Assembly (NCBI GenBank): GCA_038058635.1
Contig: JBBUAP010000002.1
Coordinates: forward strand, 20,948-84,947
DNA length: 64,000 nucleotides
Source: Patescibacteria group bacterium
GTDB taxonomy: Bacteria; Patescibacteriota; UBA1384; 2-12-FULL-50-11
Direction of reading: 5' to 3'
In this document: positions 35,638 through 62,095 of the stretch, one piece after another
How the letters are laid out: each line of letters begins with the position of its first letter
Numbering within the stretch: the first letter of the stretch is position 1
Notes under the pieces: model-generated
Seen by the model: the letters and a program-made list of their open reading frames with translations, nothing else
Told to the model about the DNA's origin: nothing
Databases searched by the model: none
Position numbers and translations under genes: made by a program

Positions 35638-36552
35638 GGCGGGCGAAGTCACCTCGGGAGTTTGCAGGGCCAGGCCCTCCGTAGGGCCTGGCCCTGTGGG
35701 AGGTATGAGAGGCGTGGGTAGTGCAGGTGGTGGGGTCGGCGATTCGATCTGTCGGACCTCCTGTTCAATAACGGCCGCGGTTTGGACAACCCGGCTTTCT
35801 AGCTGGTAAATTTTTGCCAGCAACTCCTGTTCTTTGGCTAGGGCCAGTTTTTCAGCCGCGAATCCGCGACGAACCTTGCGGCTCAAGCGCAGAATCAAGA
35901 TAATCAGGACTGGTTCGGTCAAGAAGAAGAGAATGATGACCAATAAAACCCAAAATGGTATTTGCAGCTCCACATCGGTGTTAACCAGTCGTTCGTTGGC
36001 TGGTTTCGAGGGTTTGGGTTTAGCCGGCTCGAGTACTGTTAACTGACCACCGCCAGGAAGATTTATTTTAATTGTTAAATTAGTTAGAAACGGCAGGGGG
36101 GTGAATGTGACCGTTGGTTTATCATCGAGCGTCACCCCTTCGGCAACAGCGGTGAAGGTGGAGTTGCCAGGCACTTCGGAGCTTGCAGCACAACGAGCCT
36201 TACCCTCGGTATCGGTAACGGTCGCTCGGCTGTTGGTGAGGGTACTGCCTGAGTAGCAAAGAATAGTATCGACATCGCCTCGATTAGAGCTAACAGACAC
36301 CTGCTTGTTCGGTAGGGCCAGACCCTCTTTAGATAGGATAGTGGCAGTCAAAACGACGGCCGATTTACCATCGGCCGGTAACTGGACAATGTCGCTAACA
36401 AAAGTGGAAATCCCGGCATTGACCGACGAGACAACGGTGGCATTAACCGTTGTGTTTTGAGCCAAGACAATTGCTGGGATAACGACCAGGAAAGCCAGTG
36501 TCGCCAGAGAAAGCCTCGCACTTAAAGATTGGAAGCAGGTTTTGAGCTTCAT
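35593..36552 (-). CDS. secreted Ig-like (Big-like) domain protein with TM anchor, cytoplasmic coiled-coil and Pro-rich tail
   Basis: Signal peptide, then a roughly 130-aa beta-rich domain resembling bacterial Ig-like folds (SAVVLTATILSKEG...ATVTDTEGKARCAASSE), a TM helix (FWVLLVIILFFLTEPVLIILIL), KVRR, a heptad-like region, and a P/T-rich end. Last gene of the minus-strand surface operon. Confidence 0.5.
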   Translation of the reverse strand: MKLKTCFQSLSARLSLATLAFLVVIPAIVLAQNTTVNATVVSSVNAGISTFVSDIVQLPADGKSAVVLTATILSKEGLALPNKQVSVSSNRGDVDTILCYSGSTLTNSRATVTDTEGKARCAASSEVPGNSTFTAVAEGVTLDDKPTVTFTPLPFLTNLTIKINLPGGGQLTVLEPAKPKPSKPANERLVNTDVELQIPFWVLLVIILFFLTEPVLIILILRLSRKVRRGFAAEKLALAKEQELLAKIYQLESRVVQTAAVIEQEVRQIESPTPPPALPTPLIPPTGPGPTEGLALQTPEVTSPALPQGPDAGQSPPTQ

Positions 36553-36554
36553 CG

Positions 36555-37532
36555 CTAACGAATCACAATCCTGGGTGGTGCTGAAATAGTGGTCGGTGGT
36601 GGGGGAGGCGGTAAAACAACTGTCTTCTGGCGGCGTTTTTTGTAAACTGCAAAAGCAATTCGCAGAGCCAACAATGTCAGCGCGACAATGAACCAGATCG
36701 GAATGATCACAAAACTGCGAGTGGCAAGGAGTTGCTTTTCCTCGGTTCCGTAGTAGAGGGCAGTGGTAGCAGTATATTTACCAATCGCTTTCCAGTTAAA
36801 GCCCCAACTGGTTTCAAAGCGTCGTTTACTGTCTGGCAAGACATTACCTTCGCCCTCATTTATTTTGATGGCGGCAGAAGTGTCGCCAAACCAGTTTCTG
36901 ATCTTCAGCTCTCCCTTCGGTCGGAGGTGAATATTGCCGGTATTAGAAAACAGGACCGAAAAATTAGCCGGTGGCGCAATTAAGATTCTGGGGGCAACAA
37001 ATTCTTCCAGCGTTAGTCGCTCGATGATATCGCCCGGGACTTTGGCTAACATTAGCGTTCCAACTAGGCCGACTACTCCGATCTGGCTGACATCCTCTTC
37101 TAAGGATGGTGCTTCGGTTGAAAACAAAACCGCGGCGTAGTGGCCGCCCGGATCGGCGTTTTCTGGGACGGTGATGGTGACATCGAATTTCTCGTCCTCG
37201 CCTGGTGTCACCCGAATAAAGGGTTTGGAGAAAGTTATCCACTGAGACATCGTCCAGCGCGAGGTTTTGTCCTTGGGGGTAAAGAAACTTGGCTGACCTT
37301 TATTGTTGTCGGTGTGAAAGTCCAGAGCTCTAGGGTAAAGAGTAACTTCCTTGGCAACAGGGTTTATCACTCGCAGAGTTCGGGTGGTTACTTTGCCTGG
37401 GACAACATCAAAAGTTTCAGTGACTGGGGTGACGGTAATACCGGCGGCGTCTTGGGCCTTAATGCTCGATTGGGGCGCAATCAAAATAATCGCTAACACT
37501 CCTAGGAGTAACAGCCGGTTAAGAAACCTCAT
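36555..37532 (-). CDS. secreted protein with C-terminal TM anchor and poly-Pro cytoplasmic tail (DUF916-like architecture)
   Basis: Signal peptide (LLLGVLAIILIAPQSSIKAQD), a roughly 260-aa extracellular domain, a C-terminal TM (IIPIWFIVALTLLALRIAFAV), then YKKRRQK and PPPPPP. Start codon lies 2 nt after the upstream gene's stop. Confidence 0.5.
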   Translation of the reverse strand: MRFLNRLLLLGVLAIILIAPQSSIKAQDAAGITVTPVTETFDVVPGKVTTRTLRVINPVAKEVTLYPRALDFHTDNNKGQPSFFTPKDKTSRWTMSQWITFSKPFIRVTPGEDEKFDVTITVPENADPGGHYAAVLFSTEAPSLEEDVSQIGVVGLVGTLMLAKVPGDIIERLTLEEFVAPRILIAPPANFSVLFSNTGNIHLRPKGELKIRNWFGDTSAAIKINEGEGNVLPDSKRRFETSWGFNWKAIGKYTATTALYYGTEEKQLLATRSFVIIPIWFIVALTLLALRIAFAVYKKRRQKTVVLPPPPPPTTISAPPRIVIR

Positions 37533-37533
37533 G

Positions 37534-38772
37534 CTAGTAAGTCGCTGTGCAAACGTAGGTAATAGTGTCGGTATAGGATCCCGCCGGTGCCAAACCTGAA
37601 ACAGCGGCTTTATGGACGATGGTCAGGACTCTACTGGCTAGAGCACCGGTGGAAGCAGCGATGGGAACTGCAGCGCCTGCCCCAACTTCCAGGCCACCCA
37701 TCTCGTTAGCACCGCCAGAAGCGTCGAAACGACCATCAACCGTTAAGGCGGCACCGGAACCACTGGCACTGGAGGCCGATACCCCAAAACCATCGGTTCC
37801 AGCCGCCAGTGTGGCGGTATTAGCGTAAGACGAATCGGCTGAACCGATTAAGTATGTTGTCGTGGATGATTTATATAAGCCTGGGTTGGTAGTATCTCCG
37901 GCGTCATAGACGATGATATTCAAACCGCCCTGACCGTTAGAGCTGGCGGTGATGGTAGTACTAGTATCAGAAGTTGAGACTGCGCCAGTCGTCAGCGAGG
38001 AAAAAGTGGTGGTTAGTCCGGTGAAAGTACAAGTGATGGAAGGATCGACAGTGGCGTTAACTGTCACATCGTTGTCGGCGATGACTTCGAGGGCCAGGGT
38101 GCCAGTATCAGTAAAACCACCACCGCCGGTTAGGGTGACTTTAGCGTCAGTGACATTTTGGGCCGCTGATTGGTTGGTGATTTGGTCGTTACCAGCCGAG
38201 CCACTAGTAGCATTAGTGCCAATTTCAATGGTGACGACTGATGAGGCAGCAATAGTGGCGTCAGTAGCACATCGAGTAAAAGTAAAGCCAATTGGGTCGA
38301 TGATATCGGCAGTGGTAATTTCAATCTCAATGGCCGCTCCAGAACAACCGCCGCTAGCAACCATTGTTTGATCTACTCCGTCATCAGTGACATCAAAATC
38401 TTCTGGTTCACTGTTCAGAAACCCAGCCGCACTAAAACCAGCCGGAAAAGCTAGCGCCAAGGTTTCACCAGCCACCCAAGTGTCGGCAATGGTAAAGGTG
38501 AAGGTATGGTTGGCGACAACGGACTCCTTCATCGTCGACAAGACATCAGAAAACGATGTTACCGGGGCGGCAAAAGCCGAGGGTGTATAAGGTAAGAGTA
38601 AGCTAAAAGTCACGACCAGTACCACCAGTCGAGTCAACTTGACCCACAGATTGTTCTTTCCCCCTCGTCGCATTCTTGTACTCAGCTTCCTGCTCTTTAT
38701 TGAGAATGTCAAGGGTTTTTGAAGAAATTTAATTGGTAATCCGCCTCCGACCGGTTGGCGGATGGCAGACAA
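37534..38772 (-). CDS. secreted T/S/G-rich surface protein sharing a C-terminal 32-aa motif with the giant protein
   Basis: Sec signal peptide (likely real start at Met34, about 38673: MRRGGKNNLWVKLTRLVVLVVTFSLLLPYTPSAFA|AP), a low-complexity T/S/G/A-rich body, and a C-terminus ...RVLTIVHKAAVSGLAPAGSYTDTITYVCTATY. Confidence 0.5.
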   Translation of the reverse strand: MSAIRQPVGGGLPIKFLQKPLTFSIKSRKLSTRMRRGGKNNLWVKLTRLVVLVVTFSLLLPYTPSAFAAPVTSFSDVLSTMKESVVANHTFTFTIADTWVAGETLALAFPAGFSAAGFLNSEPEDFDVTDDGVDQTMVASGGCSGAAIEIEITTADIIDPIGFTFTRCATDATIAASSVVTIEIGTNATSGSAGNDQITNQSAAQNVTDAKVTLTGGGGFTDTGTLALEVIADNDVTVNATVDPSITCTFTGLTTTFSSLTTGAVSTSDTSTTITASSNGQGGLNIIVYDAGDTTNPGLYKSSTTTYLIGSADSSYANTATLAAGTDGFGVSASSASGSGAALTVDGRFDASGGANEMGGLEVGAGAAVPIAASTGALASRVLTIVHKAAVSGLAPAGSYTDTITYVCTATY

Positions 38773-38874: not shown

Positions 38875-41800
38875 TCAGAATGTCCCGGTCAATATATATA
38901 GTACCTCTGTTGTATACGGATTGGCTTCTTGAAGTTCGCTAACCGAGACTTTGTGGGTGATGGTGAACGCTTCGTTGGTGACAGGACCGCTGGTGCCGTC
39001 AACGGCGGTGGTGTGATCGGCGATGATATCGCCAAAGGCCGTCAGACTTAACGGTGCGTAGAGCGTGCCGGTGCTAAACTTGTTGACACCCTGAATGGTG
39101 GTGTCGTCCGAGGTGTAGCCGTAGCCACAGTTGGTGCTAGGCGTACAAGTACCACCTGGCCAGGCGCCGGGTGAGGCGTAGGTGCCACCCTCAAACATCG
39201 GAATGGTTTTGACGCCTTTAGTCAGGAGGGAGCTAGCGTATTGGCGAATAACATAACCGCCGTAGGCGTTAGTGCTGGAGGTCAAGACCAAGGTCTTGGA
39301 GTCGCTCCGATTATTACCGTTATTGAGGTTGGCGAAGGTAATTGTAACCGCGCCGAGCGACAAGCTAATCGTTGGCAGAACCGACTGGCCGTTCGATGAA
39401 GTGACGCCCGAAGTATTGGTGGCGTTGTCGACCGCTCGAACATTGAAGAAGTAATTCTGGTTGGTTCGCAGAATCAAGCTACCCGATGTGACCGATTCGG
39501 TCGTCGAGTTATCGGTCCAGGCCTTGATATCGGTCCCACCGCTAGTCGTACCAATAGAGTATTGATACTTATTCAACCCGGAAACGGTGCAGGTGAAAGC
39601 ATCCCAGTTAGCCGAGACGGCAGTGAGCGACCCATCGTTATATGAAGCGTCAACATCTTCGACCGTGCCATCATAGATACTTGAGCCGTAAGTGCAGGCG
39701 GTCGTGTCAACGCCAAAGTCACGATTGGCCTCTGGATTGGCGCCAAACGAGATCCAACCAGAGTAGCCACCAAAGGTATCCTTAACTCTGGCTTGCCAGT
39801 GGTACTCGTTGGCATCAGTGATTCCGGCAATAGTAAGGACGACCGTTACTGGTGTGCCAGAGTAGGCGACACCCGAACCGCAGGAATCCTCGGTGTTGGC
39901 AAAAGCATCGGCGATCAGATCTTTCTCGACACACAAGTACAAAGTGTCGGGATTGTCGGTATCCGAGGCGGTGGCGGTGAACTTAACTGAAGTCTCGTTA
40001 GTCCAATCCCCAACGGCCAAAACCGTGTCGTCGGTCTTCTTTTGGGCCAGGGCAGAGGGATCATTCGGGTTGGTGTTAACTTGCCAGTGGAGGAAACCAA
40101 GACTATCGCTACCGCCGTCTCCGGTGTCGGAATCGGAGGCTTCACAATCGCTCCAGCCGGTACAGGTGGAAGGATACAAGGCCCAGTAGTTGCCAGCCGC
40201 TGGAGCGCCGGTGGCTGTTTGAGTAACGGAGTATTCTGGGACATTGTCAGAGGCCTCAAGGAAGGTCATATTGTCCCAAGTTTTGGCTGGAGCACCGGTG
40301 CCTATTAACGAGCCGTGGACTGTGATGTAGGTATCGGTTGCCCCGACATTCTGGAAGTTATCGAATTCGCCGTCATCAAGATTGGTCAGCGTCGCCCCAG
40401 ATTGAAGGTCGAGGCCGTTACCGCCGCTGGTACCGCCAAGGTAACTAAATTTGTAGTACTGGGCGTCGATTGTTCCGGCCACATCGAAGTGGTAGCCACC
40501 GGAGGCCCCACGAGTAACAGTGGAGAGATTAGTTGAAGTGGTTTGGCCTTTCAGCTCGAGTGTTTTGCCCGAGCCAACGGTGAAGATGTCGCCATCCTGC
40601 ATCATCGTCATTGGCTTAATGGTCGAGGTAGAGTTGTCGGCGTCAAAGGCAGCGAAGGTGTAAGTGGCGTTTAGAGCGTAGGGAGTGGCACCACAGTCAA
40701 CGGTGAACTTGGTATTAACGGCACCAGTCGAATCAGTGAACAATGTCCCGGTCGTTAGATCACCAACATCGGTACCGTTCCGGTAAACATCCATTACCGC
40801 TTGGCTAGTGACACAGCTGGCTCCGACACCGGCGGTTTTGGTGACAAGCATGTAAGCATACGGACCGGCCGACAAGTCAGCCGGAGCCGACAGGTCGTAA
40901 GCAAGGTTCGTGTCTTCGGTGCCAGTCCCAGAATACCCGTGCGCCGTAACCGATTTTTCCCACAAATTGTTGGCGTAGTTGAATTTGTCAGTACTCTCCA
41001 CTTGTGGCGTTTCGGCTGTATCGGCCGGAATGGCATACTCGCCCCAGAGCTTGGTTGCGCCAGCCGAGGTGTCGTGCTTGCGAGAAACAATATATGCCCC
41101 AGCAACAGTTACCCCAGTCACTTCAGTAGAAGAAGAGAGAGTGGTGTTGTAGAGAGAAAGGGTGTGAGCGTTAGTTCCGGCAAAAATAATGTCCGCCGTA
41201 GTATTGGCAGTTGCGCCATAGACATCATTAATGATGACATTGCCGGTTGAGGCAGTATTGTCGCTAACATATAAACCATACGACTGACCGCCGCTCTGAT
41301 TTCCGATTAATGTGTTGTTGTTAGAGATACTAAGACGAAAGCCCCAGCTGCCGTTACCCGTGGAAGTATTGGAACTTAATATATTATTACTGGAGCTGAC
41401 ATTCAGGAGAAAACCAGATGAAATATTGCCGGTGGCAGAGTTGCTCATTAGGATATTGTTGGTGGAAGTAGTGATAATAAACCCATATAGACTGTTGCCA
41501 ATAGCGGTATTAGATGTCAGGGAGTTATTTGAGCTAGAGTCGATAAGGAAACCGTAGTTAACATTGCCGGTGGAGGTATTAGATGTCAGGGTGTTATTGT
41601 TGGCGCTGGAGTCGATACGGAAACCGTAGGAGGCGTTGCCAGTGGCGGAATTGGAAGTCAGGGTGTTATTGGCGCTGGCGTTGAGATAAAAGCCAGCAGT
41701 AGTATTACCTATAGCCGTATTGCTCGTCAGGGTATTGCTATTGGAGCTGACCTGAAGGTAGAAGCCGTAGCTGGTATTACCCGAAGCGATATTGTTAGAC

Positions 41801-44800
41801 AAGGTATTGCTGTTGGCACTGCCGTTGAGATTAAATCCATAGAGAGTGTTACCAGCTGCCGAGCTGTTAGTGATACCCTTAGCGTTAGCGGTGTTGTTGT
41901 TGAGGGAGGCGGACAGTCGAGCGCCACGGTGGCCACTTCGTAAGCGCGATCGGTCAATGGTCACACCCTCGCTGGCGTTGGCGCCGTTGACAGAGTCGAA
42001 TGTTACCCCAAATTTTAAGCTAGCATTGCGGCCTAGATCACAGACATCGGCGTAATTCATAACTGTTTCCGAACCAGCGTTGGCATGAATATAACTTTCG
42101 CCAGCCTCATCATTCGTTGCGGTACAGGCAACGCCGTCTTCGGCGGTGACATTGGCGTAGTCATAAATTTCAAAATTATCTCCAGGTCTAACTCCGTCAG
42201 AGATATCTACCGTATCTCCGGAAGTGAAACCGGAGAAAACATCGGGGGACTCAACGACTTTCAGAAGATCGTTGGTACCGGTACAAGAGGCATCGTCATT
42301 AGCCGAGTCAACAATTTGGAAGTAGCCCTTGGTACCGGTGAAGTCACGCATATACGAGCCAATTTTTTGATTATCAGCGGTGATCGAGTCGGGAATACAG
42401 ACACTCATTATGCCGTTGTTGTTGGAGAGAGTCTTACTAGCACTAACGACACTAGCGGTTGAGGTATCGGCGCGGGTGATGGAGTCGTGGGTGCCGGTAT
42501 CGCACTGGGCATCGTCAGTGGTGGTGGCGGTAATCGCGTAGATCTGACCGATGGCTAGACCGCTCGTTGTTCGAACATGTTTGCTAGTGTAGCCAACTGA
42601 GAAATCTGCATTAGCACAGATTTTTGTTTCGCGGTTGTCGTAGTCGGTAATGGCAGTGGAAGAAGTGGCAGCTAGTGAGAGGGCACCGGTGACATTAAGT
42701 TTGCCAGTTGAGGCGACTTCAACACCGGTGTCAGATGCGGTGGCACTCGATTTAGGAATTAGTTTCAAGATTCCGTTTTCGTTTATCGTTAAGGTGCCTT
42801 GGCCTGATCCTGATGAGGCCCCAACATCAACAATGCAGTTAGCGCATTGAGTAGAAGTATCTTTGTTGACTTGGAGGGTAATCGTACTGCCTTCAGCCAG
42901 TGCGTCCATCGTTTGCAAAATTGCAGTTTGGTCAGCGGTTGTGGCGATGTCAATCCCGCCATAAACCAACAAGTTGTCGGCGTCGCCGTTTCCGACAGTA
43001 ACCGTACCGTTACTAACTACCAATGTATCCGCTGCCGGAGTACCGGCTGAAGTATCCACCAACATCGGATCCTGGATCGTCCATGCTCCAGCAACCCCGT
43101 TAAAGATGACTTTGAAGAAGGCCGAAGTACCGTTTAGAGTTCCGGAGAGAGTGTTACCGGAGTCAGTGGCGTTGAAAGTGACAGTGCCAGAACGAGCGGT
43201 GAAGGTGCCGATGTTACTGTAGTTCCCGCCGATCGTTAGCCCCCAGTTGGAACCGGAGACAGTGTCTAATGTTGCCGGCACATCAATGGTGAGATCGTTC
43301 GTCACGGTCGTATTTCCCTCAAGATCGTAGGTCTCGATACAAAAAATATTCAAGCAGCCAGTATTTAAATTATAGTAAGTCGCAACTTGAACCGTTGTAT
43401 TACCTCCAGCGTTATTACCCCAGAAGCTGAAAGTAGAGGTGGCGGGAGTTAAGACTGCGGCCGGCGAAGCTAGCAGTTGGAACGGATCGCCGGCAGTACC
43501 ACTTAAAATCCAGGTGCGGTTACCGGCATTGAGAGTTGTTGTCGCTCCAGCGGCATCACCAGAGGCGCCGACCAAAAGGATTGAGGATACTGTGATTCCA
43601 CCAGAACCTCCAGTCTGGGTAGTTACGGTGAACGGACTAGAGGCGTGAGAATTCGAGAAAGTGAGACTGACGAAAGTCCAGGCATTAGAGCCACTAGTGG
43701 TGCCAAAATTTTTACTCGCCCCCACCCGTTGAGTAAAGAGACTCGAACCGCTCATTGTAATCGCCCCAACTCCCGTGGCACTGCCGTTGACGGTCACATC
43801 AACCCCGCCGCTCATCGTCCCACCGGCATTAGACAAATCGTTGGCAACTTGCAGTGCTGTCGTGCTGAGAGATAAGATACTGGCCCCAGAGTGAGTGAGA
43901 TTATAGAACTGCTTAGTACTACCAGTACCGCCAGTAATGACCGTTTGAGTACCACTAGTGCCGGCAAAATCAACCGTACTGGTGTCGGCGTTGAATACAG
44001 CGGCATTAGAGTTGGTCCAATTGCCCTTAACCGTTAAATTGGCGGCGCCCATAGTCAGAATAGCAGTGGTAGTAGTGAAGTCGATATTACCATTGACGGT
44101 GACAGTTTGACCGTTGAGGTTGGTAATATTCGCAAGACTACAGCAGCCACCAAGTGACATATTGCCAGTGAAAGTCGTAGTGCCCTGGAATATAATACTG
44201 TAGGTACTTGGTAATTGATTGACGAATCCGGAGTTATAGGTATAGGCAGGAAAATTGGTGTTAGCGGATCCCCCAAAGATGTAGATTTGCCCGTTGCCGG
44301 TTCCCCAAGTTCCCGAAAGAGAAAGGGGGTTTGTCGGAGGGGACTGTAAATAGAATGTTTTAGAGTTCAAATCGAAAGTACCAGCCCCTAATGTCAAAAC
44401 ATTATCTATACCGAACGATTGTAGCATCTGAGTGGTCTTGCCACCGGCTTGGCCGACATTGAGGTTGTAAAAACGAGGTTCATACGTATTTGTCACCCCG
44501 GTCGTTATTGTTTTAGTGCCAGCTCCGTCCATTATTACTGTCGATGTTCCTTCAACGATACTTAAGCTATCTGTCGCCACCGCCGAGGTATCCCAGTTGC
44601 CGGAAACGGTAATCGTTGAGGCCCTTTCGGTCAGTGACCAAGTACCGGCGTTACCAGTCAGGTTTCCACCAATAGTTAGCGCATAGTTAAAGGTGGTATT
44701 TGTATCGAAAGTGCCGTTAGTAATATCAAAGTTATTAGTAACGCTCATTGCGTCTTGCAATGTCCAACCCCCACCAACCCCATTAAACACAAGGTTGTAA

Positions 44801-47800
44801 AAACTCTGCCCGTTGGAGGTAATGGTTTTGCCAGTGGCGACAGCAGTCATATTAACCGTTGATGTTCCCGGATTGACATTGACGGTGCCTGTTCCATTTA
44901 AGAATTTAGTACTTCCATAAATATTGAAGGTAGAAGTCTGTAAGTTAAGCTGATTCGAAGTCCCACCGTTACTTACCACATAAAGTGAGTCACCAGTTGA
45001 GGTCAGGGTGACCGTGCTTGAACCAAAGTTGTGCGTAGTATCTCCTTTATAAGCCGTCGACGAGTTGATACCCATATAACTGGCATTGATGGCATAATTT
45101 TGAGTATTAAATATGTATCCGGTCAAACCGGTTGTAGCTCCGGTACGAACACCATTAGTTGTAGTTAAATCGCCACCTAGCTGAAGGACAGAATTGTTAC
45201 CACTCGATCGATTATTTAAATCGAGTAACCAGGAGCCGTAATTTCCTCCGGCGACTGTGTTAGTAATTGAGGCCGAGTTATTGATAAATGCCATATTGGT
45301 ACTGCCAGTAATTGTGGTGGCGCTGGCGAATACAACTGATGAACCGGTCGTCGTCCTGTATAAATCGATATAATTCTGTCCTGCACCGGCTACCGTACCG
45401 CCATTGAAGGTGAGCGTCCCATTGTTAAGTCTAAAATCCGCACCAGTTAATGTAGTAGTAAATCCTGTATAGCCAATAGACAAGTTATAGAAGTCGTAAC
45501 CCGATACCGTGGTAATGGTGCCAGTTCCATTAGCCGTAACTGTCGAAGTGCCATAAACAAATTTCTCGCCTGTATCCGTATAATGTCGGCTGACTGTAAT
45601 AGTCGAGCTCCCCGCCGTGTAGCTAACTCCCGCGGTATTGGCCAGCGTAAAGTCTCTCGTTACAGTTAGGGCTAAGTTGTTGGCTGTTACGGCGCCGTTG
45701 GTAACAGTGAAATCGTTGGTGGCGGCGACAGCATTGCTGTAAGTCCAACCACCAGCCACACCATCAAAGGTTAGGTTGTAGAACGAACTTGCACCGGTCA
45801 TTGTCCCAGCTAAGGTTTTGCCCGTAGCAGTGGAAGTGAAGGTAGTGGTGTTTGATGCCGAGGTAAAGGTGCCAGCATTGTTGTAAGAGCCGCCGATCGA
45901 AAGAGCATTACCACCCATACTAAGGGTGCCGACTATATGTAGGTCTCCGGCCAATCCAGTGGTGACGGTTCCACCCGGAGTGAAGGTCTTACCAGTTGTA
46001 ATGTGGAGCGCTTTACCGGCCGTCACACTTAAGTTTCCTGTCGTCACCGTAAAGAGCATATCGGTAGCGTTCTGATCGATGTCGTAAAGATCTAGTCCCG
46101 TATTTGTTTGCGGTCCAGCGTTGTCGTGTCTAACTGCAACTTGGTCGATGTAAATGTCGACGCCGGTTTCAGTAACGGCATTAGAAAGAGTAACGGCATT
46201 ACCCTTACTGGCGGAAGTTAAGTAGATCGTGACGGTCTGTCCGGCCGTTGGGGTTATTGCCAAGTAAACGGTGTAGGCGGCGGTGGAGGCAGAACAGGTA
46301 GCGGTGGCGGCCGATCCACCGTTGACCCTAGCGGTGATGATGGCGGTTGAGCCATCGCACGGCCCACCGTTACCAGAGGTGCCGATGGTCGATTCGTTCG
46401 TTAAGTAGACGATACCCTGGATACTAATACTGGAAGAGAAGTGTAAGAAGCCATAAGTATCTGCTCCGCCGTCACCGGTATCGGAATCAGAAGCTTCACA
46501 GTCCGTCCAGCCAGTACAGGTCGAGCCGAAGAACGACCAGTAGTTCCCAGCCGCTGGAGCGCCGGTGGCGGTTTGGGTGACGGTGTACTCTGGGACGTTG
46601 TCGGATGCTTCGAGGAAAATCATATTGTCCCAGGTCTTGGCTGGAGCGCCGGTCCCGATCAATGACCCATGAACCTTTATGTATGTATCTGTTGCGCCAA
46701 CATTCTGGAAGTTGTCGAACTGACCATCATCCAAATTAGTTAGCGTTGCCCCGCTTTGCAGATCCAAGCCATTTGCCCCACTGGTTCCACCAAGATTACT
46801 AAATTTGTAGTACTGGGCGTCAATGGTTCCAGCGACATCGAAATGGTAGCCGCCAGTGGCGCCACGAGTCACAGTTGTCAGGTTAGTGGCGGTCGTTTGG
46901 CCTTTCATCTCTAAAGTCTTTCCGGACCCAACCGTAAAGATGTCACCGTCAGTCATCATCGTCATGGGTTTGATGGTTGAAGTGGAGTTGTCGGCGTCGT
47001 AAGCAACAAAAGTGTAAGTAGCATTCAAGGCATACGGGGTGGCACCGCAGTCAACGGTGAATTTAGTGTTAACAGCCCCAGTCGAGTCGGTAAACAATGT
47101 CCCGGTGGTTAAGTCGCCAACATCAGTACCGTTACGGTAGACATCCATCACTGCTTGAGAAGTCACACAGCTGGCTCCGACACCAGCGGTCTTGGTAACA
47201 AGACGGTAGGCGTACGGGCCGGCCGACAAATCAGCCGGAGCCGACAAGTCGTAGCTCAAATTAGTATCTTCGGTGCCGGTGCCAGAATATCCGTGAGCGG
47301 TCATGGACTTCTCCCACAAATTGTTGGCGTAGTTGAATTTGTCAGTACTCTCCACTTGTGGCGTTTCGGCTGTATCGGCCGGAATGGCATACTCGCCCCA
47401 GAGCTTGGTTGCGCCAGCCGAGGTGTCGTGCTTGCGAGAAACAATATATGCCCCAGCAACAGTTACCCCAGTCACTTCAGTAGAAGAAGAGAGAGTGGTG
47501 TTGTAGAGAGAAAGGGTGTGAGCGTTAGTTCCGGCAAAAATAATGTCCGCCGTAGTATTGGCAGTTGCGCCATAGACATCATTAATGATGACATTGCCGG
47601 TTGAGGCAGTATTGTCGCTAACATATAAACCATACGACTGACCGCCGCTCTGATTTCCGATTAATGTGTTGTTGTTAGAGATACTAAGACGAAAGCCCCA
47701 GCTGCCGTTACCCGTGGAAGTATTGGAACTTAATATATTATTACTGGAGCTGACATTCAGGAGAAAACCAGATGAAATATTGCCGGTGGCAGAGTTGCTC

Positions 47801-50800
47801 ATTAGGATATTGTTGGTGGAAGTAGTGATAATAAACCCATATAGACTGTTGCCAATAGCGGTATTAGATGTCAGGGAGTTATTTGAGCTAGAGTCGATAA
47901 GGAAACCGTAGTTAACATTGCCGGTGGAGGTATTAGATGTCAGGGTGTTATTGTTGGCGCTGGAGTCGATACGGAAACCGTAGGAGGCGTTGCCAGTGGC
48001 GGAATTGGAAGTCAGGGTGTTATTGGCGCTGGCGTTGAGATAAAAGCCAGCAGTAGTATTACCTATAGCCGTATTGCTCGTCAGGGTATTGCTATTGGAG
48101 CTGACCTGAAGGTAGAAGCCGTAGCTGGTATTACCCGAAGCGATATTGTTAGACAAGGTATTGCTGTTGGCACTGCCGTTGAGATTAAATCCATAGAGAG
48201 TGTTACCAGCTGCCGAGCTGTTAGTGATACCCTTAGCGTTAGCGGTGTTGTTGTTGAGGGAGGCGGACAGTCGAGCGCCACGGTGGCCACTTCGTAAGCG
48301 CGATCGGTCAATGGTCACACCCTCGCTGGCGTTGGCGCCGTTGACAGAGTCGAATGTTACCCCAAATTTTAAGCTAGCATTGCGGCCTAGATCACAGACA
48401 TCGGCGTAATTCATAACTGTTTCCGAACCAGCGTTGGCATGAATATAACTTTCGCCAGCCTCATCATTCGTTGCGGTACAGGCAACGCCGTCTTCGGCGG
48501 TGACATTGGCGTAGTCATAAATTTCAAAATTATCTCCAGGTCTAACTCCGTCAGAGATATCTACCGTATCTCCGGAAGTGAAACCGGAGAATACATCGGG
48601 GGATTCGATGACTTTCAGGAGATCGTCGGTACCGGTACAGGAGGCAGAGTCGTTAGCGGAATCGGTGATCTGGAAGTAGCCCTTGGTGCTGGTAAAGTCA
48701 CGCATATACGAACCAATCTTTTGGTTATCTGCAGTAATGGAGTCAGGGATACAGACAGCCATAATGCCGTTATTGTTGGAGAGAGTTTTACTAGCGCTGA
48801 CAACGGAAGCGGTTGAGGTATCGGCTCTAGTAATGGAATCATAAGTAGCTGTATCACACTGAGCATCGTTGACGGTTGTGGCTGTGATGGCGTAGATCTG
48901 CCCGACAGCCAGACCACTTGTTGCTCGAACATGATTACCGTTGAACTGACTACTGGTGAAGGTGGAATTTGCGCAGAGCTTTGTTTCCCGGTTGTCGTAG
49001 TCGGTTATGGCGGTGGAGGTAGTTTCCGTAAGTGAAATTGCGCCGGTGACATTAAGTTTTCCGGTGGAAGCGACTTCCACACCGGTGTCAGATGCTGTCG
49101 CAGAGGATTTTGGAATGAGTTTGAGAATACCGTTTTCGTTGATGGTGAGAGTTCCTTGACCGCTACCGGAGCTTGCGCCGACATCAACTATACAGTTAGC
49201 GCATTGAGTGGCAGTATCTTTGTTGACTTGAACGGTGATGGTACTGCCTTCCGCCAGACCGTCTTTTGTTTGTAAAGTACCCGTTTCATTAGCGACGATA
49301 GCGATGTCAATACCGCCGTAAACAAGTAGGTTGTCGCCGTTACCATTACCAACCGTCACTGTACCGTTACTAACAACTAAGGTGTCAGCCGCTGGCGTAC
49401 CGGCTGAAGTGTCAACCAACATCGGGTCTTGAATGGTCCAAGCCCCAGCGACCCCGTTAAAGATAACTTTGAAGAAGGCCGAAGTACCGTTCAAAGTTCC
49501 GGAGATGGTATTACCGGCGTCAGTAGCGTTGAAGGTAATCGTACCGCTTCTGGCGGTGAAAGTGCCGGAGTTAGAGTAATTATTTCCTATTGTTAGAGCG
49601 TAGTTAGAAGCTGTCACATCCAAAATGGCGCTGGCATGGGTGATGGTTAAGTTGTTGGTAACGACGGTGTCGCCCTCCAGAACGAAAGTGTCGGCGGCGT
49701 TAAGTTCCAGATCGTAATACGAACTGGTCATAGATTGAATTGTGGTATTGCCTCCAGCATTGGCGCCGGTGTAGTAGAACTTGGAGGTGCCACCGACCAG
49801 AGCGCCGGCTGGGGAAGCGAGGAGTTGGAACGGATCGCCGCCGGTCCCGGAAAGAGTCCATGTGCGGTTACCGGCATTGAGGGTGGTTGTCGCTCCAGCG
49901 GCATCACCTGATTTACCAACCCTTAGAATATCCGAAACAGTAACACCTCCCGTCCCACCAGTTTGGGTGGTAACGGTAAACGGTGAAGAAGCATGGGAGT
50001 TAGAGAATGTTAAATCGTAGAAAGTCCAGGCAGTTGAACCAGAAGTAGTTCCGAAGTTCTTGGCCGCTCCAATTCGTTGTTCGAATGTCCCACCGGTCAA
50101 TGATATTATCCCGGCCGTCCCCGCCACCGCCCCATTAACAGTCACATTCTGCGTGCCATTCAGGGTTCCTGCGGTCATGGTCAGGTCGTTAGTAGCAATA
50201 AGAGCATCTTGGGGCGTCCAGCCACCACCCGAGCCGTCAAAGATGATGTCATAGAAAGACTGAGCGTTGGAAGTGATGGTTTTACCAGTGGCGACGGCGG
50301 CATAGGTAACGGTAGAAGTCCCTGGGGTTAAGGTTATTGTGCTACTGGAGTTGACGAATTTGGTGTTGCCGTAAACAGTAACGGAAGAGGTTTGGAGATT
50401 AAGGGCGTAGGCCGTGGTGCCAGTGGCGGTTGGTAGAAGCGAGTCGGTAGTGGAAGTCAGCGAAACGGTACTTGAACCAAAATTGGCCGTCATAGCGCCG
50501 ACACGAGAAGCGGTGTCACCCAGCTGAAAGTAACTGGCGGTCAGACTGAAGTTTCCAGTATTGAAGATACTACCGGTAACTGCGTTAGCCGCAACAGGAA
50601 TAAAATATCCAGTGGTGGTGACATTGCCAGAGAGCTGAGTCGTTGAGCCGTTACCCGAAGTGTGAAAAGCATATAAGTTCCAAGAACCGTAATTTCCAGC
50701 TGGAATACTGACGGTGATTGCAGCGGCGTTGGCGTAGCTAGCTAGCTGTCTCGTTCCTGTCAGCGTAGTGGCGGAAGCAAAAGCAATTGGGGTATTGCTG

Positions 50801-52818
50801 ACATTATTATAGATCTCGGTGTAGCTACTGGCGGAAGTGGCCGTACCGCCATTGAAGGTAAGAAGCGGAGTATTGCCGCTCGAACAGGCTAGGGTCTGGT
50901 AGCTGGAGAGCGTAGTGGTAAAGCCGGTGTAGGCAATGGAAAGTTTACAGAAGTATCCGTTAGTAATAGTGCCAGTGCCGTTCATTATCACCTGGTTTGC
51001 CCCCGAAGTATTGGCTTTTTGACCGACATCACTCCAGCTACCGCTAACGGTGATAGTGGAGCCACGGTACAAGAAACCAACGCCGGCGGTATTGGCGACG
51101 GTGACCGTGCCGGTGACGGTCAGGGCATAACTAGAAGTGCCGTTGGTATCGAATGAGCCGTTAGTAATGTCGAAATTATTGGCTGCTTCTAGAGCAGCGT
51201 TAAGGGTCCAGCCACCGGCGACGCCGTTAAAGACGATGTTGTAGAATTTTCCGGTAGCGCCGGTCATCGTGCCAGCTAATGTTTTGCCGGTAGCGGTGGA
51301 AGAAAATGTGACCGTACCGGTGGCGGCGGTGAAAGTGCCGGAGTTGGACCAGTTGCCGCTAACGGTGATGGCGTTAGTGGTGGAGACGGTAAGAGTTCCG
51401 CCAACATCAATCGTCACTCCTGCCACCGTGACCGAAGCGGTATCTTCAGTGATGTTGTGAGTATTTAATATCTGAACGGTATCTGCCGCTTGGGGAACCG
51501 TACCGCCACAGTTTTGCCATGATCCAGTCGCACTCCAGTTACCAGTGGCAAGTGACTGACAAGCGTTATCGGAAGCGATGAGCCAACTTCTGGGCTCCAC
51601 CCACTTCGTGGGATTGTTAGTTTCTAATACTTCTGAAGGACCTAACTCAAATAAATATGGTGATATATTAGGAGTTTTAAAGGTGTATGTCAGTGGGTAA
51701 GTTTGACCGGCCTTGGCATCGATATTCCAGCTCAACTTAGTTGGGCTATCCGCAGTCTTGGTTACTTCTGCTTTGGTATCTTTAATCTCAAAATTGCTGG
51801 GAACAAATTCATCCAAGCTGTAACTGCCGGCTTTCTTAGCTTCAAAATTCAAGGTGTAGTCGTAGTCGACTGGCGGGTAAGTTCTGGTGACGCCGACTCG
51901 TTGGAGGTAGAAATCTTGATTGGCTTTGACGCTGAACTGGTCGTGAAGGGTTCTGGTGCCTTCGCCGGCTTTGGCAATAATTTTGACCTCGTAGTCACCC
52001 TCAACCGATGGTTTGAAGTTGGCTTCGTAGTCGGGTCGATCAGTTTTACCGTAAACTTCACAGTCTTTGTTGACCCGAACGGTACCATCGGCAGTGTTGA
52101 GCGTTGTGGTTCTGCCGTTTGGATCGGTGACTTCAACAGTCATTGCGGCTGTACAGACCATTTTGCCACGATCATCGAGCACCGCCAGACTGAAGAAAGC
52201 ATCTTTGCCGACAGGGTAAACGGCGTAGTCGGGGTTGAAAGCTAACACTCCCCAAAGAACTTTTTGGTCGTTGAGGACAATGCCTGAATCTTTTTGGACT
52301 GTCTCGACTTTATAGGCGCCGGCTGTCAGCCCTTGATCTTTTGACTCGATAGTTAAGGCGTCTTCAGTTGTTGAAACAGAAATATCTTTGGTTCGGTCTT
52401 CAGCGCCGACTTCTTTGACAAGCTTAACTTCGGTCTGACTGATATTAGTGTCGGATTTCTCGAGCTTGATAGTATCTTCGGCTGGTACGACTTCGTAATT
52501 ACCCTCGAAATATTCGTTGGGCTGGCTGCTACGGGCGGTAACTTCGGCAACAGAGAGAAACTGTGAGTCGATATCGGTAGTTTCTACGATCTTGATTTGG
52601 CTCGTATTGTCAGGATTAACTGCCTTGTCGATTTGAGCTCGGATCGGACCAAAATAGGCCAGCACCCCAAGCCCAATAACTAGAGCAAAGAAGATTGAGA
52701 AAAATCTAACTGGATGATAGGCGTATTCAGACAACACCGTTGCCCGGGTCTGTCGGTAGATACCATCAAGACGAGTTTTGGCTTTTTCAACCCGCGCCGT
52801 CATCTGGCTTTCTCCCAT
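38875..52818 (-). CDS. giant (4,647 aa) membrane-anchored parallel beta-helix (PbH1/NosD-like) repeat surface protein with an internal 2,118-aa tandem duplication
   Basis: Uninterrupted 13.9-kb ORF. Probable start at Met6 (52803) after a GGGAGA SD. N-terminal TM (FFSIFFALVIGLGVLAYF). Two large repeat units, each containing T/S/G/N-rich beta-rich modules and 10 or more PbH1-type 22-23-aa repeats (NTLTSNTAIGN-x-YGFYL...). C-terminus ...EAFTITHKVSVSELQEANPYTTEVLYILTGTF. Confidence 0.8.
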   Translation of the reverse strand: MGESQMTARVEKAKTRLDGIYRQTRATVLSEYAYHPVRFFSIFFALVIGLGVLAYFGPIRAQIDKAVNPDNTSQIKIVETTDIDSQFLSVAEVTARSSQPNEYFEGNYEVVPAEDTIKLEKSDTNISQTEVKLVKEVGAEDRTKDISVSTTEDALTIESKDQGLTAGAYKVETVQKDSGIVLNDQKVLWGVLAFNPDYAVYPVGKDAFFSLAVLDDRGKMVCTAAMTVEVTDPNGRTTTLNTADGTVRVNKDCEVYGKTDRPDYEANFKPSVEGDYEVKIIAKAGEGTRTLHDQFSVKANQDFYLQRVGVTRTYPPVDYDYTLNFEAKKAGSYSLDEFVPSNFEIKDTKAEVTKTADSPTKLSWNIDAKAGQTYPLTYTFKTPNISPYLFELGPSEVLETNNPTKWVEPRSWLIASDNACQSLATGNWSATGSWQNCGGTVPQAADTVQILNTHNITEDTASVTVAGVTIDVGGTLTVSTTNAITVSGNWSNSGTFTAATGTVTFSSTATGKTLAGTMTGATGKFYNIVFNGVAGGWTLNAALEAANNFDITNGSFDTNGTSSYALTVTGTVTVANTAGVGFLYRGSTITVSGSWSDVGQKANTSGANQVIMNGTGTITNGYFCKLSIAYTGFTTTLSSYQTLACSSGNTPLLTFNGGTATSASSYTEIYNNVSNTPIAFASATTLTGTRQLASYANAAAITVSIPAGNYGSWNLYAFHTSGNGSTTQLSGNVTTTGYFIPVAANAVTGSIFNTGNFSLTASYFQLGDTASRVGAMTANFGSSTVSLTSTTDSLLPTATGTTAYALNLQTSSVTVYGNTKFVNSSSTITLTPGTSTVTYAAVATGKTITSNAQSFYDIIFDGSGGGWTPQDALIATNDLTMTAGTLNGTQNVTVNGAVAGTAGIISLTGGTFEQRIGAAKNFGTTSGSTAWTFYDLTFSNSHASSPFTVTTQTGGTGGVTVSDILRVGKSGDAAGATTTLNAGNRTWTLSGTGGDPFQLLASPAGALVGGTSKFYYTGANAGGNTTIQSMTSSYYDLELNAADTFVLEGDTVVTNNLTITHASAILDVTASNYALTIGNNYSNSGTFTARSGTITFNATDAGNTISGTLNGTSAFFKVIFNGVAGAWTIQDPMLVDTSAGTPAADTLVVSNGTVTVGNGNGDNLLVYGGIDIAIVANETGTLQTKDGLAEGSTITVQVNKDTATQCANCIVDVGASSGSGQGTLTINENGILKLIPKSSATASDTGVEVASTGKLNVTGAISLTETTSTAITDYDNRETKLCANSTFTSSQFNGNHVRATSGLAVGQIYAITATTVNDAQCDTATYDSITRADTSTASVVSASKTLSNNNGIMAVCIPDSITADNQKIGSYMRDFTSTKGYFQITDSANDSASCTGTDDLLKVIESPDVFSGFTSGDTVDISDGVRPGDNFEIYDYANVTAEDGVACTATNDEAGESYIHANAGSETVMNYADVCDLGRNASLKFGVTFDSVNGANASEGVTIDRSRLRSGHRGARLSASLNNNTANAKGITNSSAAGNTLYGFNLNGSANSNTLSNNIASGNTSYGFYLQVSSNSNTLTSNTAIGNTTAGFYLNASANNTLTSNSATGNASYGFRIDSSANNNTLTSNTSTGNVNYGFLIDSSSNNSLTSNTAIGNSLYGFIITTSTNNILMSNSATGNISSGFLLNVSSSNNILSSNTSTGNGSWGFRLSISNNNTLIGNQSGGQSYGLYVSDNTASTGNVIINDVYGATANTTADIIFAGTNAHTLSLYNTTLSSSTEVTGVTVAGAYIVSRKHDTSAGATKLWGEYAIPADTAETPQVESTDKFNYANNLWEKSMTAHGYSGTGTEDTNLSYDLSAPADLSAGPYAYRLVTKTAGVGASCVTSQAVMDVYRNGTDVGDLTTGTLFTDSTGAVNTKFTVDCGATPYALNATYTFVAYDADNSTSTIKPMTMMTDGDIFTVGSGKTLEMKGQTTATNLTTVTRGATGGYHFDVAGTIDAQYYKFSNLGGTSGANGLDLQSGATLTNLDDGQFDNFQNVGATDTYIKVHGSLIGTGAPAKTWDNMIFLEASDNVPEYTVTQTATGAPAAGNYWSFFGSTCTGWTDCEASDSDTGDGGADTYGFLHFSSSISIQGIVYLTNESTIGTSGNGGPCDGSTAIITARVNGGSAATATCSASTAAYTVYLAITPTAGQTVTIYLTSASKGNAVTLSNAVTETGVDIYIDQVAVRHDNAGPQTNTGLDLYDIDQNATDMLFTVTTGNLSVTAGKALHITTGKTFTPGGTVTTGLAGDLHIVGTLSMGGNALSIGGSYNNAGTFTSASNTTTFTSTATGKTLAGTMTGASSFYNLTFDGVAGGWTYSNAVAATNDFTVTNGAVTANNLALTVTRDFTLANTAGVSYTAGSSTITVSRHYTDTGEKFVYGTSTVTANGTGTITTVSGYDFYNLSIGYTGFTTTLTGADFRLNNGTLTFNGGTVAGAGQNYIDLYRTTTGSSVVFASATTITGSTNMAFINNSASITNTVAGGNYGSWLLDLNNRSSGNNSVLQLGGDLTTTNGVRTGATTGLTGYIFNTQNYAINASYMGINSSTAYKGDTTHNFGSSTVTLTSTGDSLYVVSNGGTSNQLNLQTSTFNIYGSTKFLNGTGTVNVNPGTSTVNMTAVATGKTITSNGQSFYNLVFNGVGGGWTLQDAMSVTNNFDITNGTFDTNTTFNYALTIGGNLTGNAGTWSLTERASTITVSGNWDTSAVATDSLSIVEGTSTVIMDGAGTKTITTGVTNTYEPRFYNLNVGQAGGKTTQMLQSFGIDNVLTLGAGTFDLNSKTFYLQSPPTNPLSLSGTWGTGNGQIYIFGGSANTNFPAYTYNSGFVNQLPSTYSIIFQGTTTFTGNMSLGGCCSLANITNLNGQTVTVNGNIDFTTTTAILTMGAANLTVKGNWTNSNAAVFNADTSTVDFAGTSGTQTVITGGTGSTKQFYNLTHSGASILSLSTTALQVANDLSNAGGTMSGGVDVTVNGSATGVGAITMSGSSLFTQRVGASKNFGTTSGSNAWTFVSLTFSNSHASSPFTVTTQTGGSGGITVSSILLVGASGDAAGATTTLNAGNRTWILSGTAGDPFQLLASPAAVLTPATSTFSFWGNNAGGNTTVQVATYYNLNTGCLNIFCIETYDLEGNTTVTNDLTIDVPATLDTVSGSNWGLTIGGNYSNIGTFTARSGTVTFNATDSGNTLSGTLNGTSAFFKVIFNGVAGAWTIQDPMLVDTSAGTPAADTLVVSNGTVTVGNGDADNLLVYGGIDIATTADQTAILQTMDALAEGSTITLQVNKDTSTQCANCIVDVGASSGSGQGTLTINENGILKLIPKSSATASDTGVEVASTGKLNVTGALSLAATSSTAITDYDNRETKICANADFSVGYTSKHVRTTSGLAIGQIYAITATTTDDAQCDTGTHDSITRADTSTASVVSASKTLSNNNGIMSVCIPDSITADNQKIGSYMRDFTGTKGYFQIVDSANDDASCTGTNDLLKVVESPDVFSGFTSGDTVDISDGVRPGDNFEIYDYANVTAEDGVACTATNDEAGESYIHANAGSETVMNYADVCDLGRNASLKFGVTFDSVNGANASEGVTIDRSRLRSGHRGARLSASLNNNTANAKGITNSSAAGNTLYGFNLNGSANSNTLSNNIASGNTSYGFYLQVSSNSNTLTSNTAIGNTTAGFYLNASANNTLTSNSATGNASYGFRIDSSANNNTLTSNTSTGNVNYGFLIDSSSNNSLTSNTAIGNSLYGFIITTSTNNILMSNSATGNISSGFLLNVSSSNNILSSNTSTGNGSWGFRLSISNNNTLIGNQSGGQSYGLYVSDNTASTGNVIINDVYGATANTTADIIFAGTNAHTLSLYNTTLSSSTEVTGVTVAGAYIVSRKHDTSAGATKLWGEYAIPADTAETPQVESTDKFNYANNLWEKSVTAHGYSGTGTEDTNLAYDLSAPADLSAGPYAYMLVTKTAGVGASCVTSQAVMDVYRNGTDVGDLTTGTLFTDSTGAVNTKFTVDCGATPYALNATYTFAAFDADNSTSTIKPMTMMQDGDIFTVGSGKTLELKGQTTSTNLSTVTRGASGGYHFDVAGTIDAQYYKFSYLGGTSGGNGLDLQSGATLTNLDDGEFDNFQNVGATDTYITVHGSLIGTGAPAKTWDNMTFLEASDNVPEYSVTQTATGAPAAGNYWALYPSTCTGWSDCEASDSDTGDGGSDSLGFLHWQVNTNPNDPSALAQKKTDDTVLAVGDWTNETSVKFTATASDTDNPDTLYLCVEKDLIADAFANTEDSCGSGVAYSGTPVTVVLTIAGITDANEYHWQARVKDTFGGYSGWISFGANPEANRDFGVDTTACTYGSSIYDGTVEDVDASYNDGSLTAVSANWDAFTCTVSGLNKYQYSIGTTSGGTDIKAWTDNSTTESVTSGSLILRTNQNYFFNVRAVDNATNTSGVTSSNGQSVLPTISLSLGAVTITFANLNNGNNRSDSKTLVLTSSTNAYGGYVIRQYASSLLTKGVKTIPMFEGGTYASPGAWPGGTCTPSTNCGYGYTSDDTTIQGVNKFSTGTLYAPLSLTAFGDIIADHTTAVDGTSGPVTNEAFTITHKVSVSELQEANPYTTEVLYILTGTF
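39400..51400. repeat. intragenic tandem duplication, period 6,354 bp (two copies), with a 1.28-kb block of apparent nucleotide identity
   Basis: Antisense ORF pairs are offset by exactly 6,354 nt (40801/47155, 41312/47666, 41727/48081, 41846/48200, 42085/48439) with identical translations over 40960..42238 vs 47314..48592. The flanks are diverged but homologous. Confidence 0.85.
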
Positions 52819-53080: not shown

Positions 53081-53683
53081 TCATAGGTTTTTAGCTAAAT
53101 TATCTTTAACCATTTTTTTAACAATATCTTCAATCTCTTTGCCACCAGTATCTTTGTGGCGAATCAGACCGGCGATACTATCAGCCAACCTGATTAAGGC
53201 ACTACTTTGATCTTTGAGACCTCTAACTTTTCCGTGAATTCCGGCCCGATGCAGAATTTTGCTGGTCTTTTGTCTTTCCCTCTCATTTAGACCATCAACG
53301 ATAACCGTCGCTTTGTAGCTCTTGATATGGCGTGATTGGGCGTAGAGATTAAGGGCTTGAGTAATAACAATCGCTGTCAAATCTTGGTAGGATTTGGTGT
53401 CTGTGTATTCGCGATAGAATATTTTACCCTTAAGCCAGGTCGGCTTGAGTGAGAGTTCTAGATATTTGATTCGGCGGTCGGGTTTGGTATTTGTCCATTT
53501 GATCTTTCCTCGTCCGCTCTCATGTTCGCATCGCTCCAAAAACTCCTCTATTTTTTCTTTTTCCGTTCCCGTTACAACAGCAACTACAATAAAAAGCTTT
53601 CCAAGAGTATCTTGTCCTGTTTCGTCAACAAAACAGTAAAGCTTTTCAGTTTTCGAGGACGGCGACTTTTTTGACACAGTCAT
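53081..53683 (-). CDS. DUF3800-family protein
   Basis: N-terminus LYCFVDETGQDTLGKLFIVVAVV matches the DUF3800 DESG motif region. 200 aa. Confidence 0.55.
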   Translation of the reverse strand: MTVSKKSPSSKTEKLYCFVDETGQDTLGKLFIVVAVVTGTEKEKIEEFLERCEHESGRGKIKWTNTKPDRRIKYLELSLKPTWLKGKIFYREYTDTKSYQDLTAIVITQALNLYAQSRHIKSYKATVIVDGLNERERQKTSKILHRAGIHGKVRGLKDQSSALIRLADSIAGLIRHKDTGGKEIEDIVKKMVKDNLAKNL

Positions 53684-54522: not shown

Positions 54523-54545
54523 ATATCCATATTAGTCAGGATTCT

Positions 54546-54578
54546 CCAATCTTCAAAGGCCTGGCCTTTGAAGATTGG
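54546..54578. repeat. REP-like perfect palindrome (type a), 24 nt upstream of the RAYT-1 start and 5 nt after the PEBP stop
   Basis: ccaatcttcaaaggcc-t-ggcctttgaagattgg, a 16-bp stem. Confidence 0.85.
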
Positions 54579-54582
54579 GTTT

Positions 54583-62078: not shown

Positions 62079-62095
62079 GCCAGCAGCAGCGGTAA
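61481..62095 (+). CDS. LAGLIDADG homing endonuclease (double-motif), intron 2. The ORF runs into the downstream exon.
   Basis: ILIGVTLGDGYL and LAIWYQDDGTL motifs. The stop TAA lies inside the exon sequence GGTAATAC. The track ORF starts at 61424. Confidence 0.75.
   Translation: MTERVKEILIGVTLGDGYLTSFSGKSQKSSLDMKVAEDKYQYLNWLRHELAELGGSGLTKRSDNNQFRLVTQRNLEIGRIRTLFYPNGKKCIPSNIDQLLISPLTLAIWYQDDGTLDYRDKYHYNALFATHRFSHSGCELLTSALQKNFGLDVRVCRCQMRGKVNYRLYVVSKSMDRFLGLIRPYIHPCFQYKIRDLKASQQQR

Follow-up and report, generated by a model that had tools for sequence, protein, structure and literature searches.

Intragenomic gene conversion and concerted evolution of paralogs are well known in bacteria, for example for tufA/tufB and the rRNA operons. 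Phage tailspikes are known for the modular exchange of their beta-helix receptor-binding or depolymerase domains. In Trypanosoma brucei, the GAF-A domain of TbrPDEB1 is described as having been copied into TbrPDEB2 by gene conversion between the tandem paralogs (PMC2689650). Giant proteins of 30 to 85 kaa (thousand amino acids) with HEAT, TPR and dockerin content have been reported from Omnitrophota (bioRxiv 10.1101/2023.11.21.568195). The locus described here lies in a 64,000-nucleotide (nt) stretch of DNA, called the window below, from a Patescibacteria group bacterium belonging to the Candidate Phyla Radiation (CPR) (assembly GCA_038058635.1, contig JBBUAP010000002.1, positions 20,948 to 84,947). 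A giant gene in the window encodes a presumed surface protein with two paralogous modules, and the two modules share a 1,280-nt block without a single difference. We put the probability that recent intragenic gene conversion overwrote one beta-helix of this protein with the other at roughly 0.8.

The locus resembles tufA/tufB and the rRNA operons in having a sharp-edged identical tract inside diverged duplicates and a phylogeny that switches from orthology to paralog identity. Unlike in tufA/tufB, the duplicates are two modules of a single open reading frame (ORF), 6.35 kb apart, the tract corresponds to a single structural domain, and the gene belongs to an uncultivated CPR bacterium. Phage tailspikes are similar in their right-handed parallel beta-helix, in the hypervariable, discrete types of the helix and in the conserved shoulders that appear to act as recombination sites; however, the window protein would be a cellular, membrane-anchored giant and not a virion fibre, sequence identity is 9 to 17%, and the likeness is one of predicted fold. 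In the T. brucei pair, a tract of domain size and with sharp bounds is likewise reported to have been copied between adjacent coding sequences that are paralogs, but this case is eukaryotic and concerns two separate genes and an intracellular enzyme (PMC2689650). The Omnitrophota giants are comparable in their great length, membrane anchor, largely extracellular and repeat-rich nature, proposed role in adhesion or attack, and repeats that fragment assemblies, whereas the window protein is 4.6 kaa long, carries a NosD-like parallel beta-helix and comes from a different phylum. A literature search for the accessions of the runs, the assembly and the protein gave no paper. Each element has precedents: paralogous repeats that undergo gene conversion, receptor modules with a hypervariable beta-helix, and giant surface proteins rich in repeats. 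Their joint occurrence in a CPR bacterium adds an example and does not define a new kind.

An identical 1,280-nt block within two diverged modules

A comparison of the giant gene with itself, shifted by exactly 6,354 nt, gave a longest run without mismatches of 1,280 nt. The gene and the two copies of the block are located as follows.

38875..52818, minus strand: giant gene, one ORF of 4,647 amino acids (aa), or 4,642 aa from the second Met
47312..48591, minus strand: identical block, module 1 copy (gene nt 4228-5507, aa 1410-1836)
40958..42237, minus strand: identical block, module 2 copy (gene nt 10582-11861, aa 3528-3954)

Just these two copies, 100% identical, were found by blastn within the window. 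Outside the block, nt identity in the same register was 74 to 83% per 100 nt, and the edges were abrupt, with a mismatch every 3 to 10 nt immediately beyond both boundaries. The chance of a perfect run of 1,280 nt at a background identity of ~80% is about 0.8^1280, or roughly 1e-124. Between modules 1 and 2, synonymous divergence (dS) was 0.003 in the block and reached 1.32 and 1.88 in the left and right flanks, where nonsynonymous divergence (dN) was 0.097 and 0.065, respectively, and 70 to 78% of the mismatches fell on third codon positions. Because synonymous sites are identical as well, selection at the protein level is excluded as the cause of the identical block. Abrupt-edged identity that includes synonymous sites and lies inside diverged paralogs is the mark of a gene-conversion tract. 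A diversity-generating retroelement was also considered and rejected: its pair of template repeat and variable repeat would be expected to span ~100 to 150 bp and to differ at template adenines, whereas the 1,280-nt repeat is without any difference. No reverse transcriptase was found among the 11 window ORFs that were scanned against Pfam.

A sequence-only reading of the window had proposed a 1.28-kb identical block at this offset, and the measurement bears it out, with the proposed limits (40960..42238 and 47314..48592) off by 1 to 2 nt. The antisense ORF pairs that it had described at an offset of exactly 6,354 nt are present as well. There are four such pairs on the plus strand (40801..41250 and 47155..47604, 41312..41557 and 47666..47911, 41846..42055 and 48200..48409, 42085..42462 and 48439..48816). 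The plus-strand ORFs inside the giant gene (these, at 40801-48816, and one at 51703..52245) encode 66 to 180 aa and are duplicated along with the repeat. We treat them as by-products of the repeat, and nothing points to genes.

Architecture of the giant gene

The product of the giant gene is deposited at NCBI as MEK7202473.1 ([quoted passage not shown]), derived from a metagenome-assembled genome (MAG). Public gene calls use the second Met as the start and thus give the 4,642-aa form; the exact 4,647-aa form was without a match. The parts of the protein are encoded as follows.

52651..52710, minus strand: N-terminal hydrophobic segment (aa 37-56), presumed membrane anchor; no other 20-mer of the protein is hydrophobic
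46440..50079, minus strand: core module 1, the upstream copy (gene nt 2740-6379, aa 914-2126)
43732..46439, minus strand: inter-module segment, consisting of a linker (aa 2127-2290) and then stalk 2 of sub-repeats, with motif copies at aa 2346 and 2673
40086..43731, minus strand: core module 2 (gene nt 9088-12733, aa 3030-4244)

Outside the hydrophobic segment the composition is rich in Thr, Gly, Ser and Asn, and the protein beyond its N-terminal anchor is presumed to be extracellular. The well-aligned duplicated segment covers 3,655 nt with 83.9% nt identity between modules 1 and 2, at offsets of 6,348 to 6,357 nt. At the protein level, aa 500-2127 and 2652-4245 are 75% identical, and a weaker resemblance of the modules, at an offset of 6,444, continues upstream as far as about aa 500. 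In a second register, aa 470-908 match aa 2293-2730 with 50% aa identity, because the stalk before each core consists of sub-repeats; their motif F-Y-x-[LIV]-x-F-x-G-x-x-G-x-W-T occurs in 3 copies in each half of the protein. The linker is specific to the downstream side of module 1 and has no counterpart after module 2 (24% identity). The gene is therefore not, as had been supposed from the sequence, largely a pair of 2,118-aa units: only the 3,655-nt segment aligns well, and the register shifts upstream of it. A simple tandem duplication of one 2,118-aa unit is ruled out by the shifting register and by the uneven similarity across the unit, and the gene is better described as two stalk-plus-core modules. 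The flanks of the block also differ from the initial description, which gave them 60 to 85% protein identity. Between the modules, the two that adjoin the block share 87.4% of their residues (aa 1100-1409) and 91.7% (aa 1837-2126); lower values are found only farther out, with 71% at aa 914-1099 and ~50% for the stalk.

Age of the duplication

The nearest genome in the GTDB species set was that of Ca. Berkelbacteria RIFCSPLOWO2_01_FULL_50_28 (MEZX01000002.1), here called the Rifle genome. Its syntenic ortholog (at least 5,238 aa in L010; 6,296 aa as P0023) contains two cores too, with 75% nt identity over 2.7 kb and without an identical block. Across the region equivalent to the block, the Rifle modules showed a dS of 1.43, a dN of 0.28 and 64% aa identity. 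The block-equivalents of a more distant two-core homolog (P0026) were 51% identical in aa. A scan of JGI metagenomes re-found only the Rifle locus (L019, 100% identical to L010). Homolog searches with the inter-module segment returned only distant proteins of at most 53% identity, and a search with module 1 likewise missed all close relatives.

We next asked how the two window modules and the two Rifle modules group in a four-sequence codon alignment, in which informative sites were counted as concerted (within genome), orthologous or cross. Inside the block the counts were 147:0:0, all of them in favor of the within-genome grouping. The sites directly downstream of the block (aa 1846-1896) were listed as 13:2:1 and were read as favoring orthology, and at aa 1051-1199 the counts were 67:7:6. 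The presence of two diverged modules in the Rifle ortholog, together with the orthology sites, indicates that the duplication is older than the divergence of the two organisms. Orthology would have been retained in some segments and erased earlier in others, by homogenization within each lineage, and the site patterns suggest that the most recent of these events produced the 1,280-nt block.

Across the family, the number of cores per protein is one or two. The single-core homologs (P0001-P0004, about 1,440 aa) are stand-alone proteins with 42 to 44% identity over 86% of the core; their N-terminal region of ~400 aa is a different one, so that the core behaves like a self-contained module open to combination with other domains. 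The Rifle genome also holds a second giant gene of 4,362 aa (L011 8450..21538, MEZX01000002.1), about 40 kb away from the ortholog. The product of this gene and the window protein have the N-terminal region and the stalk repeats in common, and blastp against the core module gave no match at E <= 1e-20.

Assembly support for the two copies

Since a perfect repeat is a place where assemblies can fail, the sequence-only reading had cautioned against an assembly error. The giant gene on ENA contig NODE_180 (ERZ1292638, 57.8 kb) was 100% identical in nt to that of the window, and the exact 4,642-aa product was found on six contigs, NODE_180 among them, the longest of which measures 423 kb. NODE_180, at 57.8 kb, cannot be the source of the 64-kb window, so that at least two assemblies agree. 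Logan contigs are independent assemblies of single runs at k=31, in which a unitig that enters a repeat stops k-1 = 30 nt inside it. Contig L003 (ERR3858135) ends at gene nt 4257, which is the block start + 29, and contigs L006 to L008 (ERR3858133, ERR3858116 and ERR3858118) start at gene nt 11832, which is the block end - 29. Break points k-1 inside the edges mean that the edges of identity are true branch points in the reads of four runs. Furthermore, the inter-module segment begins in the end of a block and finishes in the start of a block, and a linear genome that contains this segment needs at least two block copies. The caution is thereby reduced, by the branch points and by the six contigs, and part of it stands, as bubble-popping may hide a few differences between the copies and the loop count may be another one. 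The 1.28-kb exact repeat is a spot where short-read assemblies of this population break or may be mis-resolved. A further contig, L004 (ERR3858118), breaks at gene nt 104, away from the repeats seen in the giant gene, perhaps because strains in that sample vary at the start of the gene.

The block encodes a predicted beta-helix

The block comprises a beta-helix together with parts of its two shoulders, about 85 and 45 residues long.

47449..48333, minus strand: right-handed parallel beta-helix (PbH1/NosD-like), block copy 1 (about aa 1496-1790; coils of 23 to 24 aa)
41095..41979, minus strand: the same PbH1/NosD-like beta-helix, block copy 2

The DNA of the block repeats with a period of 69 to 72 nt, equal to coils of 23 to 24 residues. 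Pfam Beta_helix (PF13229) and NosD (PF05048) matched in four stretches with 105.5 bits each, at cut-offs of 25.9 and 23.6. These matches lie inside aa 1410-1836 and 3528-3954, and the proposal that the block encodes a parallel beta-helix array is thus confirmed. An AlphaFold2 model was computed for aa 1100-2126 from an alignment of 8 sequences. It displayed a beta-helix with a regular E-E-E pattern at model residues ~430-610, with a predicted local distance difference test score (pLDDT) of about 75 to 93, while the mean pLDDT was 51.6 and the rest of the model is unreliable. In a Foldseek search of the PDB, the beta-helix matched the mannuronan C5-epimerases AlgE4, AlgE6 and AlgG, the tailspikes of CBA120, Sf6, HK620 and P22, NosD and polysaccharide lyases (E of 1e-5 to 1e-3 for AlgE4, AlgG, the tailspikes and NosD). 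A sequence search of the PDB gave a marginal match only, to AlgG (E 0.003). The window protein is thus like the CASH-type proteins NosD, AlgG and AlgE in its hidden Markov model matches far above threshold and in its predicted beta-helix, a likeness that is one of fold only. Judged by fold, the module is predicted to be a generic polysaccharide-binding or polysaccharide-processing right-handed beta-helix, from which no activity can be deduced.

Variability of the helix among relatives

Strain L002 (GCA_964366935.1, CAYIVM010000005.1, 1-11827) was 98.1% identical to the window over 11.8 kb that take in flanking DNA and the gene up to its nt 1,169. Beyond about gene nt 1169 the identity collapsed abruptly. 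The L002 allele has a stalk of ~2,548 aa with no first core at the equivalent position and then one core, and the contig ends inside the gene. This collapse ~1.2 kb into the gene and the other order of modules suggest that the giant gene is hypervariable between strains, with what appears to be a sharp recombination breakpoint. Ongoing variation in copy number, which had been raised as a possibility from the sequence, finds some support in this differently built allele; the support is indirect, as the contig ends within the gene.

The shoulders and the interior of the helix gave different pictures of relatedness. In its left shoulder (aa 1100-1409), L002 was 90 to 93% identical in aa to the window modules versus 79 to 84% to the Rifle modules. 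In the interior (aa 1520-1700) it was nearest to Rifle module 2 (79% aa, 77% nt) and only 55% identical in aa to the window block. The other pairs of helix interiors had 52 to 58% aa identity, and the helix type of the window matched neither Rifle type. In these comparisons the helix falls into at least three discrete types among the five modules, with incongruent relationships of shoulder and interior. At the endpoints of the window tract, the Rifle modules were 77 to 82% identical in nt, and across its interior they were 53 to 57% identical. Endpoints in conserved shoulders around a divergent interior are the pattern predicted by homology-dependent replacement of a divergent cassette. A fragment from another data set (P0022, SRR3989344) combined a module 1 right flank with residues of the module 2 type across its first ~125 aa, which is a weak hint at other exchange tracts.

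Genomic context

Downstream of the giant gene lie three co-oriented genes, followed by a convergent PGK gene.

35593..38772, minus strand: three co-oriented genes downstream, 412, 325 and 319 aa long; the products of 325 and 319 aa carry Ig-like domains (fn3_5 and Big_1)

At the Rifle locus, the giant gene is followed by ORFs of 390 and 322 aa and then by a convergent ORF at the place of PGK, a likeness in size and order only. Given this conserved order in the Berkelbacteria genome, the giant gene and its downstream genes probably form a surface-protein operon. Just upstream of the giant gene (53836-56141), two genes of the IS200-like Y1 transposase family (228 and 260 aa, 59% identical in aa) flank a PEBP-family gene, and a DUF3800 gene (53081..53683) is located between this group and the giant gene. 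At 59871-64000, the window closes with a bacterial 16S rRNA gene that is split by at least two group I introns (Rfam Intron_gpI, 61105-61479 and 62392-63370). Its insertions contain ORFs at 60316..60783, 61424..62095 and 62450..63346, for which a matching public contig annotates LAGLIDADG_1, LAGLIDADG_2 and LAGLIDADG_3 homing endonucleases. Intron-split 16S rRNA genes are typical of CPR bacteria.

Discussion

The giant gene would encode a membrane-anchored extracellular protein of a Berkelbacteria-like CPR/Patescibacteria bacterium. This protein would carry two ancient paralogous stalk-plus-core modules with one right-handed parallel beta-helix per core. We propose that 1,280 bp of one module were overwritten with those of the other in a recent event of non-reciprocal homologous recombination, presumably of the RecA type. 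The endpoints of the exchange would lie in the shoulders that are conserved between the modules, and the tract would cover the interior, which is the most divergent part in relatives. The outcome would be two identical beta-helices where relatives have two different ones, and both helices would then share an identical specificity. The earlier suspicion of recent gene conversion or homogenization within an older duplication is upheld by the two diverged Rifle modules, by a dS of 1.3 to 1.9 in the flanks versus none in the block and by the switch in site pattern.

Several observations weigh against this interpretation or limit it. Break points in the assembly graph were seen at only 2 of the 4 junctions, namely, at the upstream flank of copy 1 and at the downstream one of copy 2. 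A few true differences between the block copies could have been lost to bubble-popping, so that the exact identity of 100% rests on the assemblies, and the topology of the graph does not fix how many times the loop, made up of the block and the inter-module segment, is traversed. The orthology signal comes from one 50-codon window with 13 sites. Furthermore, the block is about equidistant from both Rifle helices (67% and 69% aa identity), and for this reason the donor module and the direction of the transfer are not assignable.

The first three of these points bear on the explanation that the pattern is an artefact of assembly, in which collapsed variants or miscounted loop traversals would have made copies that are merely near-identical look identical or would have produced a wrong number of modules. 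An exact repeat of 1.28 kb is longer than the inserts of usual short-read libraries, breaks of short-read contigs do occur at the block, and the contig of the sibling MAG, L002, ends inside the gene. However, the breaks lie exactly k-1 = 30 nt inside the edges of identity in four runs, a linear genome with the inter-module segment requires at least two block copies, and the same 4,642-aa product is present on six contigs, with at least two assemblies in agreement. Bubble-popping, moreover, cannot raise an identity of ~80% to 100% and would conceal a handful of differences at most. We therefore regard an artefact as unlikely.

Two biological scenarios were weighed along with it. Both beta-helix cassettes could have been imported independently from the same external donor, either another strain or a paralogous giant gene. 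The helix interior does act like an exchangeable cassette, as L002 has a Rifle module 2-like helix within window-like shoulders and the window helix type is unlike either Rifle type; but such an import would take two events that share their endpoints to the nucleotide in both modules, no third copy of the block is present in the window, and a single intragenic event is more parsimonious. This makes a double import very improbable. Even harder to credit is a very recent duplication by unequal crossing-over that created the second module afresh, with flanks that diverged by accelerated evolution. The tandem layout and the nearly constant offset of 6,348 to 6,357 nt would fit it, but the flank dS is saturated (1.3 to 1.9), a dN/dS of 0.03 to 0.07 speaks for long purifying selection and not for acceleration, two modules exist already in a different species, and an orthology signal is present. 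Intragenic gene conversion thus remains the explanation that we favor.

An extracellular location and a role in the binding of glycans on another cell are inferred for the protein. Most likely, it is a membrane-anchored protein that presents two glycan-recognizing beta-helices on long stalks, plausibly for contact with the envelope of another cell. On a more speculative level, the beta-helix could be a cassette that can be swapped and that determines the specificity of a host-contact protein, with the CPR bacterium living as an episymbiont. The conserved shoulders would then serve as recombination handles, cassettes would move between modules as well as between strains or species, and intragenic conversion would be one arm of host-range or valency switching and not a neutral accident. 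This scheme is drawn from three genomes, and we consider it tentative and rather doubtful.

For CPR bacteria, which rely on contact with other cells, the large surface proteins are leading candidates to establish it, and these proteins are still essentially uncharacterized. At the locus described here, a beta-helix that is of the glycan-binding type by its fold would be the fast-evolving, recombining part of such a surface protein. One lineage appears to have swapped one helix type for a second copy of the other, which nominates the helix as a specificity determinant. Helix type and copy identity may also provide a marker for tracking strain-level adaptation in time-series metagenomes.

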